In this document: positions 1,557 through 51,950 of the stretch, one piece after another | How positions within the stretch are numbered: position 1 is the stretch's first letter | Layout of the letters: each line of letters opens with the position of its first letter | Origin: Escherichia coli | GTDB lineage: Bacteria > Pseudomonadota > Gammaproteobacteria > Enterobacterales > Enterobacteriaceae | Strand: one strand, 5' to 3' | DNA: 64,000 bases | Assembly: GCF_024502345.1 (NCBI RefSeq) | Contig: NZ_JALDNN010000001.1 | Translations under genes and position numbers: made by a program | Notes under the pieces: model-generated | What the model was told of the DNA's origin: nothing | The model's database searches: none | What the model saw: the letters and a program-made list of their open reading frames with translations, nothing else

Positions 1557-4447
<2,891 letters not shown>

Positions 4448-25384: not shown

Positions 25385-25699
25385 TCTTTCCGCGTCTCAT
25401 CTTTATCGGTGAGACGCACCCTCAAAATTTCTCCTTCACTCTATAGTCTTTTCGCTTTACTCCCGTTCATTCAACTTAAGTCTCCATTTTTTTACATTAC
25501 TGCTATCTGTCAGACCTCCGTTTTTCTGTTGATAAAACACTCTTTTTGACGTTTTTACAGACTAATTGAGCGTGAAGTGTGCAAACGATAAAAGTGTGGG
25601 AAAAATTGTTTGACTTATAAGTCTCAGAAAGTAATATGTGCGCCACGCAGCGACGATGAGCGATAAACAAGTTCTTCGAAGCACTCGTAAGAGGCGTGT

Positions 25700-25792
25700 G
25701 GTGAGGTGGCCGAGAGGCTGAAGGCGCTCCCCTGCTAAGGGAGTATGCGGTCAAAAGCTGCATCCGGGGTTCGAATCCCCGCCTCACCGCCA
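25700..25792 (+). tRNA. serV: tRNA-Ser (anticodon GCU)
   Basis: 93-nt cloverleaf GGTGAGGTGGCCGAGAGG...CGCCTCACCGCCA with long variable arm and anticodon loop CCTGCTAAG. Confidence 0.9.
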
Positions 25793-25795
25793 TTT

Positions 25796-25872
25796 GCATC
25801 CGTAGCTCAGCTGGATAGAGTACTCGGCTACGAACCGAGCGGTCGGAGGTTCGAATCCTCCCGGATGCACCA
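25796..25872 (+). tRNA. argV: tRNA-Arg (anticodon ACG)
   Basis: 77-nt GCATCCGTAGCTCAGCTGGATAGAGTACTCGGCTACGAACCGAGCGGTCGGAGGTTCGAATCCTCCCGGATGCACCA. Confidence 0.9.
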
Positions 25873-26007
25873 TATTCTCCGTAACCTTCAGCGATGAAGG
25901 TATGGAAGAGGTGGCGGTACTAACCGCAGGCACCAGGGAGAATAACGTTGCTTTAGCAACGGCCCGAAGGGCGAGCCGCAAGGCGAGTAATCCTCCCGGA
26001 TGCACCA
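25873..26007 (+). repeat. Structured spacer element ending in a tRNA-Arg 3-prime-end mimic (copy 1)
   Basis: 135-nt unit starting TATTCTCCG with four short hairpins and ending GAGTAATCCTCCCGGATGCACCA, duplicating the 3-prime terminus of the upstream tRNA-Arg. Confidence 0.7.
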
Positions 26008-26071
26008 TCTCTTACTTGATACGGCTTTAGTAGCGGTATCAAAAAATCTGCAGTAAAGTAAGTTTCCCGAT

Positions 26072-26148
26072 GCATCCGTAGCTCAGCTGGATAGAGTACT
26101 CGGCTACGAACCGAGCGGTCGGAGGTTCGAATCCTCCCGGATGCACCA
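26072..26148 (+). tRNA. argY: tRNA-Arg (anticodon ACG)
   Basis: Identical 77-nt tRNA-Arg sequence, second copy. Confidence 0.9.
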
Positions 26149-26210
26149 TCTCTTACTTGATATGGCTTTAGTAGCGGTATCAATATCAGCAGTAAAATAA
26201 ATTTCCCGAT

Positions 26211-26287
26211 GCATCCGTAGCTCAGCTGGATAGAGTACTCGGCTACGAACCGAGCGGTCGGAGGTTCGAATCCTCCCGGATGCACCA
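26211..26287 (+). tRNA. argZ: tRNA-Arg (anticodon ACG)
   Basis: Identical 77-nt tRNA-Arg sequence, third copy. Confidence 0.9.
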
Positions 26288-26422
26288 TATTCTCCGAAAT
26301 CTTCAGCAATGAAGATATCGAAGAGGTAGCGGAATTAACCGCAGGCACCAGGGAGGATAACGTTGCGCCAGCAACGGCCCGAAGGGCGAGCCGCAAGGCG
26401 AGTAATCCTCCCGGATGCACCA
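26288..26422 (+). repeat. Structured spacer element ending in a tRNA-Arg 3-prime-end mimic (copy 2)
   Basis: Same 135-nt unit after argZ with a few substitutions. Confidence 0.7.
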
Positions 26423-26485
26423 TCTCTTACTTGATATGGCTTTAGTAGCGATATCAATATCAGCAGTAAAATAAATTTTCCCGAT

Positions 26486-26562
26486 GCATCCGTAGCTCAG
26501 CTGGATAGAGTACTCGGCTACGAACCGAGCGGTCGGAGGTTCGAATCCTCCCGGATGCACCA
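26486..26562 (+). tRNA. argQ: tRNA-Arg (anticodon ACG)
   Basis: Identical 77-nt tRNA-Arg sequence, fourth copy. Confidence 0.9.
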
Positions 26563-26695
26563 TATTCTCCGAAATCTTCAGCAATGAAGATATCGAAGAG
26601 GTAGCGGAATTAACCGCAGGCACCAGGAAGGATAACGTTGCTTTAGCAACGGCCCGAAGGGCGAACGCCAGTGAGTCATCCTCCCGGATGCACCA
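26563..26695 (+). repeat. Structured spacer element ending in a tRNA-Arg 3-prime-end mimic (copy 3)
   Basis: Same unit after argQ; ends GTGAGTCATCCTCCCGGATGCACCA although no tRNA follows. Confidence 0.7.
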
Positions 26696-26842
26696 TCTTC
26701 TCCAAAAAATTTCCTTCAAAAATATCTCATTTTTAAATAACTACTTTATCCATTTCCTGAATTTTCTTCTCCTTCGCCATCAGCGACAAAATCAAGCAAT
26801 TACGCTAAAGTAGCGTCATATTTTTCGACTTGCGAGAAGACC

Positions 26843-27409
26843 ATGTACGAGCGTTATGCAGGTTTAATTTTTGATATGGATGGCACAATCCTGGATACGG
26901 AGCCTACGCACCGTAAAGCGTGGCGCGAAGTATTAGGGCACTACGGTCTTCAGTACGATGTTCAGGCGATGATTGCGCTTAATGGATCGCCCACCTGGCG
27001 TATTACTCAGGCAATTATTGAGCTGAATCAGGCCGATCTCGACCCGCATGCGTTAGCGCGTGAAAAAACAGAAGCAGTAAGAAGTATGCTGCTGGATAGT
27101 GTCGAGCCGCTTCCTCTTGTTGAAGTGGTGAAAAGTTGGCATGGACGTCGGTCAATGGCGGTAGGAACGGGGAGTGAAAGCGCCATCGCTGAGGCATTGC
27201 TGGCTCACCTGGGATTACGCCGTTATTTTGACGCCGTCGTCGCTGCCGATCACGTCAAACACCATAAACCCGCGCCAGACACATTTTTGTTGTGCGCGCA
27301 GCGTATGGGCGTGCAACCGACGCAGTGTGTGGTCTTTGAAGATGCCGATTTCGGTATTCAGGCGGCCCGTGCAGCAGGCATGGACGCTGTGGATGTTCGC
27401 TTGCTGTGA
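26843..27409 (+). CDS. yqaB: HAD-family sugar phosphatase YqaB
   Basis: 188-aa ORF with HAD motif I FDMDGT. Confidence 0.85.
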   Translation: MYERYAGLIFDMDGTILDTEPTHRKAWREVLGHYGLQYDVQAMIALNGSPTWRITQAIIELNQADLDPHALAREKTEAVRSMLLDSVEPLPLVEVVKSWHGRRSMAVGTGSESAIAEALLAHLGLRRYFDAVVAADHVKHHKPAPDTFLLCAQRMGVQPTQCVVFEDADFGIQAARAAGMDAVDVRLL

Positions 27410-29471: not shown

Positions 29472-29544
29472 AAAAAGGCCACTCGTGAGTGGCCAAAATT
29501 TCATCTCTGAATTCAGGGATGATGATAACAAATGCGCGTCTTTC
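29472..29544 (-). ncRNA. micA: Hfq-dependent sRNA MicA (SraD)
   Basis: Reverse complement reads GAAAGACGCGCATTTGTTATCATCATCCCTGAATTCAGAGATGAAATTTTGGCCACTCACGAGTGGCCTTTTT, matching MicA as I recall it, with its terminator hairpin. Confidence 0.9.
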
Positions 29545-36129: not shown

Positions 36130-36225
36130 TGTGGTTTGTAGGCATGATAAGACGCGCCAGCGTCGCATCAGGCATTGTGTACAGAGCGGCGGATGCGGCG
36201 AAAACGCCTTATCCGCCCGAATAAA
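36130..36225. repeat. REP palindromic element
   Basis: TGTAGGCATGATAAGACGCGCCAGCGTCGCATCAGGCA...GGCGGATGCGGCGAAAACGCCTTATCCGCC between ygaY and proX. Confidence 0.7.
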
Positions 36226-51539: not shown

Positions 51540-51950
51540 TGCCGGAGAGCGGCTCCGCCTTATCCGGCCGACATAGATTTATTCCTGTTCACGTACAGAT
51601 TGTCGGATGCGGCGTAAACGCCTTATCCGACCTGGATCCCCGTAGGCCGGACAAGACGCGCAGCGTCGCCTCCGGCATGGGTGCGCCGATTGTCGGATGC
51701 GGCGCAAACGCCTTATCCGACCTACATTTCCGTAGGCCGGACAAGACGCGTAAGCGTCGCCTCCGGCATGGTGCGCCGAATGTCGGATGCGGCGTTAACG
51801 CCTTATCCAACCTACACTCTCGTAGGCCGGACAAGACGCGCAGCGTCGCCTCCGGCATGGTGCGCCGATTGTCGGATGCGGCGTTAACGCCTTATCCGAC
51901 CTACACTCTCGTAGGCCGGACAAGACGCGCAGCGTCGCCTCCGGCATGGG
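51540..51950. repeat. REP/BIME tandem cluster (about 5 units) between gabT and gabP
   Basis: Repeated TGTCGGATGCGGCG(T/C)AAACGCCTTATCCGACCTAC...CGTAGGCCGGACAAGACGCGCAGCGTCGCCTCCGGCATGG units. Confidence 0.8.

Follow-up and report, generated by a model that had tools for sequence, protein, structure and literature searches.

RtT RNA (Rfam RF00391), also annotated as rttR, corresponds to the 178-bp repeats of the Escherichia coli tyrT-tyrV operon described by Bosl and Kersten in 1991 (as cited in PMC3318445). A 175-bp rtT sequence is a variable-number tandem repeat between Salmonella Paratyphi A strains (PMC2658671), RtT RNAs were detected as expressed features in Klebsiella RNA-seq (PMC4147364), and CaCoFold placed a tandem G-A motif in RtT (PMC7657543). 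We studied a 64,000-nt stretch of an E. coli genome (RefSeq assembly GCF_024502345.1, contig NZ_JALDNN010000001.1; hereafter the window, numbered from its first nucleotide), in which the operon serV-argV-argY-argZ-argQ, followed by yqaB, carries three structured units of 133-135 nt behind tRNA-Arg genes. The results make it probable that these units are a divergent short form of the RtT class, i.e., a subfamily linked to tRNA-Arg(ACG); that degree of confidence applies to the whole explanation defended here, in which members of an RtT subfamily are processed spacers whose array changes by recombination between repeats. RtT itself has been known since 1991 and is present in Rfam, whose threshold the Arg-linked short form does not reach.

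An earlier note on this DNA, made from the sequence, had described a conserved 133-135-nt element after argV, argZ and argQ that was missing after argY. Alignment confirmed it: the three units (135, 135 and 133 nt) had a mean column identity of 95% over 135 columns, shared the start TATTCTCCG and began at the base after the CCA of argV, argZ and argQ, on the same strand. Each unit closed with a copy of the tRNA-Arg 3' terminus that runs from T loop to CCA. The copy, previously put at about 20 nt, was identical to the tRNA over 19, 19 and 18 nt including the CCA, and the terminal unit 3 had it as well. The spacer of 62-64 nt following the copies in units 1 and 2 was that found after the real argY end (repeat family D3), the blocks formed by 3' end and spacer being 76-97% identical; from this shared 3' end and spacer it follows that the array is built from blocks of tRNA plus spacer (139 bp) and of tRNA plus unit plus spacer (275 bp). 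A 17-nt word of the unit core occurred three times in the window against 0.22 expected, and the repeated units are real, far beyond chance. All four genes for tRNA-Arg(ACG) were mutually identical (ARAGORN, Rfam), and the array had 97.7% identity with that of E. coli K-12, in the same layout. Its features were the following:

25700-25792, + strand: serV, tRNA-Ser(GCU) (ARAGORN, Rfam).
25796-25872, + strand: argV, tRNA-Arg(ACG) (ARAGORN, Rfam).
25873-26007, + strand: unit 1, probable short-form RtT-like element of 135 nt (alignment, folding, Rfam RtT at 29-32.6 bits).
25930-25943, + strand: unit 1 anti-strand GCACCAGGGAGAAT, complementary to the tRNA-end copy or, alternatively, to the 5' leader UAUUCUCC (minimum free energy folds, pair counts).
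25946-25987, + strand: unit 1 conserved RtT core, CGTTGC-N4-GCAACG, GCCC-GAA-GGGC and CGAG-hairpin-CGAG (Rfam consensus alignment, family covariation).
25989-26007, + strand: unit 1 copy of the tRNA-Arg 3' end, 19 nt, tRNA positions 58-76 including CCA (sequence identity).
26008-26071, + strand: spacer S1, of the same sequence family as the trailer after the real argY 3' end (repeat family D3).
26072-26148, + strand: argY, tRNA-Arg(ACG) (ARAGORN, Rfam).
26149-26210, + strand: spacer S2 between argY and argZ, 62 nt, without a unit (repeat family D3; K-12 RNA 3' end 4 nt past the argY CCA).
26211-26287, + strand: argZ, tRNA-Arg(ACG) (ARAGORN, Rfam).
26288-26422, + strand: unit 2, 135 nt (alignment, folding; K-12 Term-seq ends equivalent to window 26387 and 26334).
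26404-26422, + strand: unit 2 copy of the tRNA-Arg 3' end, 19 nt (sequence identity).
26423-26485, + strand: spacer S3, of the S1/S2 family (repeat family D3).
26486-26562, + strand: argQ, tRNA-Arg(ACG) (ARAGORN, Rfam).
26563-26695, + strand: unit 3, 133 nt, terminal unit and 3' external spacer (alignment, folding; K-12 Term-seq end equivalent to window 26662).
26678-26695, + strand: unit 3 copy of the tRNA-Arg 3' end, 18 nt (sequence identity).

At a relaxed threshold the Rfam RtT model matched all three units end to end (29, 26.9 and 22 bits). Unit 1 searched alone reached 32.6 bits (E = 4e-5), and local E-values for the units went from 4e-5 to 0.18. The cmscan alignments showed that the 3' half of the units follows the RtT consensus near base for base (model positions ~67-130), the chief difference being the last 19 nt, a tRNA-Arg end in the units and a tRNA-Tyr end in RtT. 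BLAST with the unit led to a Salmonella feature annotated as 'RtT RNA' behind tRNA-Pro. Like RtT, the Arg units lie directly behind a tRNA gene in the same orientation, finish with the terminal 18-19 nt of the preceding tRNA, CCA included, contain the common core AACGUUGC-loop-GCAACG-GCCC-GNA-GGGC-GA-hairpin-GAGU(A/C)AU, have an upstream strand complementary to the tRNA-end copy, and occur in tandem in variable number. They differ from RtT in lacking model positions ~24-66 and a tpr-like ORF, in having a 5' domain of their own, 57 nt long with two hairpins, and in a dominant mapped 3' end that falls at position 100 and not at the CCA (see below). Full-length forms scored above the threshold of the model (Tyr 133-137, Pro ~99 and Lys 77-81 bits). 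A peptide gene like tpr was considered for the Arg units and rejected: the tpr frame (RQRPEGR) is closed by stops or has no start, and the ATG of a 42-aa ORF in unit 1 is lost in units 2 and 3. No ORF was conserved among the three units, and the antisense ORFs over this region, which the earlier note had dismissed as artefacts, are indeed such, since they extend across the tRNA genes with a recurrent antisense-tRNA peptide.

Folding, one of the checks that had been proposed for the element, gave energies of -47 to -60 kcal/mol with z-scores of -4.6, -6.9 and -4.5 for units 1, 2 and 3, and none of 200 shuffled sequences folded as well. In the predicted fold, the 5' domain forms the hairpins CUUCA-GNRA-UGAAG and GCGG-N6-CCGC, followed in the core by CGUUGC-N4-GCAACG and GCCC-GAA-GGGC. 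The hairpins already described were borne out, except that the CGTTGC/GCAACG loop has 4 nt and not 3. Two elements had been missed: a fifth hairpin, GCC-GCAA-GGC, between flanks CGAG...CGAG, and a long-range helix between GCACCAGGGAGGAT (unit positions 58-71) and the tRNA-end copy ATCCTCCCGGATGC (as RNA strands, GCACCAGGGAGGAU and AUCCUCCCGGAUGC). In the ungapped register 12 of the 14 positions of this helix are paired in silico, with mismatches at 4:69 and 6:67, and its modelled geometry, with ACCA at the end, is that of stacked acceptor and T stems. An alternative helix, in which the 5' leader UAUUCUCC pairs with GGGAGGAUA, was the minimum free energy fold in several genera and also in the fragment of positions 1-100, whose own folding z-scores were -4.0 to -5.3. 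The leader immediately follows each tRNA CCA and is similar to the beginning of the tRNA-end copy (UAAUCCUCC), and leader and copy compete for one purine strand (window 25873-25880 with 25937-25944, and likewise in units 2 and 3). The pyrimidine partner of Enterobacter sp. Bisph1 is relocated to after the first hairpin.

Among 18 Arg-type units from six genera there were compensatory changes in hairpin 2 and in the last hairpin, while the core hairpins and the long-range helix were invariant. The first hairpin kept its pairing although its sequence differed considerably between genera. When about 38 distinct core variants of all types were compared, CGTTGC/GCAACG was replaced by CGTCGC/GCGACG, the pair in GGGx...GAyT was C:G in 27, T:A in 5 and discordant in 2, and the inner hairpin of the core appeared as more than 20 different self-complementary sequences. 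These covariation signals agree with the tandem G-A motif from CaCoFold (PMC7657543). Arg-type covariation did not serve to choose between pairing of the anti-strand with the leader and with the copy, since both are compatible with the alignment (90% and 97% of cells paired) and neither covaries.

Transcription data for K-12 came from the curated list of MG1655 RNA 3' ends obtained by Term-seq (Adams et al. 2021, PMC7815308); in each listed string the 3' end is base 51, a format checked at serV, and positions were transferred through the K-12 gene coordinates. The 'orphan' end 2817684, found in all three growth conditions with ~1e5 reads (PMC7815308), falls on the last C of GCCC-GAA-GGGC in unit 3, at position 100 (window 26662). 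The end 2817959, present in two conditions with ~1e5 reads, is position 100 of unit 2 (window 26387). Two others, 2818012 (one condition) and 2818194, correspond to unit 2 position 47, in the loop of hairpin 2 (window 26334), and to a site 4 nt past the argY CCA (window 26152). In the tyrT-tyrV spacer unit an end at 1287359 (- strand) lies 4 nt past the CCA of the tRNA-Tyr-end copy; this offset is common to tyrT, argY and the tRNA-Tyr-end copy, and therefore a copy with its trailer can direct tRNA-like 3' cleavage. The same study located in a bicyclomycin experiment a region of Rho-dependent termination at 2817550 (Rho score 39.8; PMC7815308, supplementary file 2), which lies beyond argQ by 234 nt and beyond unit 3 by ~100 nt, with 47 nt remaining to the yqaB ATG. 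Two further features of the window belong here:

25610-25637, + strand: promoter-like site TTGACT-16-TAATAT upstream of serV (consensus scan).
26696-26843, + strand: C-rich, G-poor tract between unit 3 and the yqaB ATG (composition; K-12 Rho region at about window 26796).

The serV-argVYZQ transcript likely starts at the promoter-like site, judging by its match to the consensus. The first 105 nt of the tract (26696-26800) have 25.7% C and 4.8% G. A search for an intrinsic terminator after unit 3 found none, just a weak stem at 26802-26816; termination in K-12 is Rho-dependent. The dominant 3' ends within units 2 and 3 and the Rho region beyond unit 3 support that the units are co-transcribed and processed spacers. 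This had been offered as the second option in the earlier note, and membership in the RtT class points the same way. The 3' ends of these spacer-derived RNAs are about as abundant as those listed for many mRNAs. The tyrT operon likewise ends at a Rho-dependent terminator in its repeats, and in both operons the terminal unit precedes the terminator; that of the arg operon in K-12 lies just past its last unit.

The following sequence of events would account for the data. The units are transcribed within the serV-argVYZQ precursor, and the enzymes that release the tRNAs would also excise the units. An endonuclease, presumably RNase E as in tRNA maturation, would cut a few bases after each CCA. 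Exonucleases acting 3' to 5' would then trim the units up to the CGTTGC/GCAACG and GCCC/GGGC hairpins, the putative barrier, and leave the end at position 100. If the 5' end is set by the CCA of the tRNA, the product would be a 100-nt RNA with a compact predicted fold, in which the leader UAUUCUCC pairs with GGGAGGAUA, any physiological role of this released RNA being putative. The terminal unit is the 3' external spacer, with transcription crossing into the C-rich, G-poor tract and stopping there by Rho. In the DNA, unequal crossing-over and repeat-mediated deletion would act on the 19-nt tRNA-end copies and on the 77-nt tRNA genes, which are identical, and the numbers of tRNA-Arg genes and of units would vary as a result.

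Two known kinds of RNA resemble the products proposed here. Lalaouna et al. are said to have described in 2015 regulatory RNAs derived from tRNA spacers, namely the 3' external transcribed spacer of glyW-cysT-leuZ and the internal transcribed spacer of metZWV. Like them, the arg units would arise from the processing of a tRNA operon and persist as a discrete RNA; they differ in being far more structured and repeated, and for a putative sponge role no Hfq association or sRNA pairing came to light, the Hfq CLASH supplements having no entries for argV, argY, argZ or argQ. REP/BIME sequences are structured intergenic repeats that stop 3' exonucleases. These and the arg units are both made of G+C-rich hairpins that collect RNA 3' ends after Rho termination or endonuclease cuts, but they have no sequence relationship, and the arg units are linked to stable-RNA genes and repeat the host 3' end.

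A search for the unit at other loci, which had also been recommended, found a related core behind other stable RNAs. The survey of core words used one genome per species, so that the taxonomic range is that of the sample, its statements cover the matches listed, and many chance matches occur in G+C-rich genomes. Among the matches listed, the core was behind tRNA-Tyr, tRNA-Pro(CGG), tRNA-Lys(UUU) and tRNA-Arg(ACG) in Escherichia, Salmonella, Citrobacter, Klebsiella, Enterobacter, Superficieibacter, Rahnella and Acerihabitans. Units of other genera linked to Tyr, Pro or Lys nearly always continue, after the core, with 18-19 nt from the 3' end of the tRNA just before them, and the core of the Tyr and Pro types lies within a T-arm or T-arm-like sequence that it splits. 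The Pro- and Lys-linked units are located downstream of a hairpin like an intrinsic terminator, directly after the tRNA, and this hairpin is repeated after the copy (survey locus L007, 1240-1300 and 1577-1620; also L076, L047 and L071); the duplicated block therefore consists of tRNA 3' end and terminator. Full-length RtT-like units were observed beyond Enterobacterales, behind a tRNA-Arg(CCG) of Marinobacterium lutimaris (L097, reverse strand, 3320-3760) and a tRNA-Glu of Aliiglaciecola sp. (L103, 3750-4260), where the copies match only the first 11 and 8 nt, respectively, of the tRNA 3' segment. In Superficieibacter electus (L056, 80-231) and E. albertii (L039) a 5S rRNA gene and tRNA-Thr have an RtT-like core between them. 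The last part of this 5S-linked unit repeats the 5S 3' end together with its trailer (AACTGCCAGGCATCAAATTAAG), with an upstream GGCAGTT opposite AACTGCC, and the form was present in 580 of the 5,426 complete E. coli genomes. Enterobacter sp. BIGb0383 has a variant tRNA-Tyr 3' end (…CCCCCGCCACCA) that is mirrored in the copy of its unit (L069, ~5484), which by this sequence match indicates concerted evolution or a recent duplication.

This structured core of roughly 45-70 nt has at least six hosts, tRNA-Tyr, Pro, Lys, Arg(ACG), Arg(CCG) and 5S rRNA, with a weaker copy at tRNA-Glu. In most host types the core is joined to part or all of the host 3' end, and most also have a complementary anti-strand: in the Arg(ACG), Tyr, Pro and Arg(CCG) types the host is matched by the strand that faces the copy. 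A strict test showed host-specific complementarity clearly in Tyr and most Arg units, weakly in Pro units and not at all in Lys units. Because the core is behind at least six stable-RNA genes and the copy changes with the host, these modules may be more than passive spacers. It is conceivable, though we rate it as unlikely, that the RtT core is copied between stable-RNA genes by a dedicated DNA- or RNA-mediated route capturing the host 3' end, or else that anti-strand and copy form a selected device controlling 3'-end processing or mimicking the host RNA; this rating is joint for both options. The core joined to the 3' end copy of whichever stable RNA is upstream, including 5S rRNA, is the part deserving follow-up, and if this host-3'-end rule reflects an active mechanism, it would give a handle on RtT RNA function. 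Moreover, the Rfam RtT model misses the Arg-linked subfamily and the 5S-linked variant: the Klebsiella Arg units and the 5S-linked form were below the Rfam gathering threshold.

In a rival reading, that of a tRNA mimic, anti-strand and copy would make a 12-bp acceptor/T-stem minihelix with discriminator A and CCA. It would engage RNase P, the CCA-adding enzyme or the ribosome and RelA, as a decoy of uncharged tRNA; a decoy or stringent-response role was reportedly once proposed for RtT. The pairing of 12 of 14 positions without gaps and the ACCA end fit this proposal, as does the 5' strand GCACCAGGGAGG, equal to the acceptor 5' and T-stem 5' strands of tRNA-Arg at 10 of 12 positions. Agreement of the closing strand with the host T-stem was also seen for the Tyr, Pro and Arg(CCG) types, the 5S-linked unit has its own GGCAGTT opposite AACTGCC, and rttR at the K-12 tyrT locus is annotated as ending at the CCA of the copy. 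The RNA 3' ends argue otherwise, since the dominant ones in K-12, at position 100, remove the copy. A cut by RNase P at the 5' end of the minihelix was also considered and found no support in the mapped ends: the peak-filtered list has no 3' end at position 57, the predicted RNase P -1 site, and the nearest end, 2818012, maps to position 47 in one condition. In addition, Lys-type units have no obvious closing strand, the leader helix competes for the same strand, and the minihelix never covaries within the Arg type. We consider the mimic quite improbable.

The presence/absence polymorphism sought in the earlier note exists. The Arg-specific 5' half was found in 5,356 of 5,426 complete E. coli genomes, always in the chromosome, in 1-6 copies (median 3), so that counts per genome range from 0 to 6 and about 70 genomes have none; the terminal unit was present in ~98.5% of the genomes. 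Sampled E. coli arrays had 1-5 tRNA-Arg genes: five tRNAs occurred with units after at least the first four or with the terminal unit only, and one array with three tRNAs was without terminal unit. Klebsiella, Enterobacter, Superficieibacter and Salmonella each showed a different arrangement. E. coli WB61 (L005, 1940-2051) has a single tRNA-Arg(ACG) whose normal spacer is fused, in the loop of a core hairpin, to the 3' half of a terminal unit, a hybrid that from its sequence apparently arose by a deletion that removed three tRNA genes. In K. pneumoniae (L009, 1578-1673 and 1882-1945) half-units made of the 5' leader and two hairpins follow tRNA-end copies, and therefore the repeat phase differs from that of E. 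coli; its first arg spacer (150 nt) is of unrelated sequence. The terminal Arg-type units of Salmonella enterica are decaying (L130, 1774-1900; L131, 1487-1620), with mutated copies (…GGATGCGTCA, …GGATACGTCA), and serovar Senftenberg has lost part of the terminal-unit core. The variation fits the outcome expected of recombination between 77-nt tRNA genes plus deletion between 19-nt repeats. This repeat recombination explains strain differences in the number of tRNA-Arg(ACG) genes (1-5 in the sampled genomes), and such variation bears on studies of codon usage and tRNA supply and on the assembly of this repeat.

The same polymorphism could be read in a neutral way: the units would be decaying by-products of tandem duplication of tRNA plus trailer, i.e., pseudo-tRNA remnants whose RNA has no role, which unequal crossing-over would carry along and whose transcription would be due solely to their place in a tRNA operon. 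Copies varying from 0 to 6 with loss at individual tRNAs, the mutations and deletions in Salmonella, the single tRNA gene and hybrid spacer/half-unit of WB61, and the Pro and Lys units behind a duplicated terminator hairpin, which points to duplication at the DNA level, would all be expected of such relics. What is hard to reconcile with them is the conservation and covariation of the core, which was retained behind at least five host RNAs and in several gammaproteobacterial orders and whose compensatory changes are many. The 5' hairpins, too, remain paired although their sequences differ between Escherichia, Klebsiella and Enterobacter, the units fold far below shuffled sequences, and the terminal unit persists in nearly all E. 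coli genomes. Relics are possible for individual copies; as a general explanation we find them unlikely.

Several observations count against the units being a functional, processed RtT subfamily. At the Rfam gathering score (45 bits) there were zero RtT matches among the units of the window. They have no counterpart of the central ~45 nt of the family (model ~24-66), which comprises UGAGAA, a T-arm-like hairpin, UUCGA and CUCGAGCG...AGCGAGA; in the Arg form GGGAGGAU is joined straight to AACGUUGC. This missing segment explains why the units score below threshold, and, together with the gathering score, it leaves the units outside RtT in the strict sense. Within the Arg type, neither the long-range helix nor the alternative leader helix showed compensatory changes. 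Of the peaks within each 100 bp the Term-seq list retains the strongest one only, and it deals badly with repeats; because only that peak is listed, weaker ends at the CCA of the Arg copies are compatible with the data. Finally, the array without terminal unit in the sampled strain RIVM_C037134 is one of the cases in which units are dispensable, and, since they are also decaying in Salmonella terminal copies, any function is weak or redundant.

The explanation favoured in the earlier note was an integration footprint, in which a small element had entered the 3' part of tRNA-Arg, leaving attL as the intact tRNA and attR as the displaced end. Integrases of the T-loop class that target tRNA genes are said to produce such attL/attR repeats (a description attributed to Williams in 2002), and in the arg units, too, the part of the tRNA from its T loop to its 3' end is directly repeated on either side of an insert. 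A repeat of this span, T loop to CCA, is typical of the att sites of that class; presence/absence polymorphism would also suit an insertion. The insert, however, measures 116 nt; it has no conserved ORF, no integrase or cargo and no homology to phages, and the duplicated block extends over the whole 62-64-nt trailer and not only over an att core. The same core is found behind 5S rRNA, it interrupts T-arm-like sequence in the Tyr and Pro types instead of adjoining an intact att-like block, and the loci are chromosomal, tandem and syntenic across genera. BLAST against a phage collection returned only a misfiled Salmonella chromosome, a pattern scan of IMG/VR gave 0 matches, the core being absent from 2.9 million viral contigs, and all matches in the plasmid collection were in non-mobilizable records, of which those inspected were chromosomes filed as plasmids. 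The footprint is highly improbable, and the earlier interpretation as a whole was partly supported. The misfiled record, OR850888.1 ('Salmonella phage S.Kent 1-2-1', UNVERIFIED_ORG; L134, 1268-1520), is Salmonella chromosomal proK DNA with an RtT unit, in which the tRNA-Pro-end copy stops at ...CACCGAC and is joined to unrelated sequence.

Nothing was annotated in the arg spacers of K-12 in RefSeq, nor in those of the further RefSeq E. coli records examined, and no discussion of these spacers was found in the searchable literature; the units fill an annotation gap in the best-studied bacterial genome. Elsewhere in the window, Rfam matched the MicA sRNA and four naRNA4 elements (REP-type), three of these in tandem; the intervals were 29473-29544, 36141-36218 and 51645-51901, all in the - strand.

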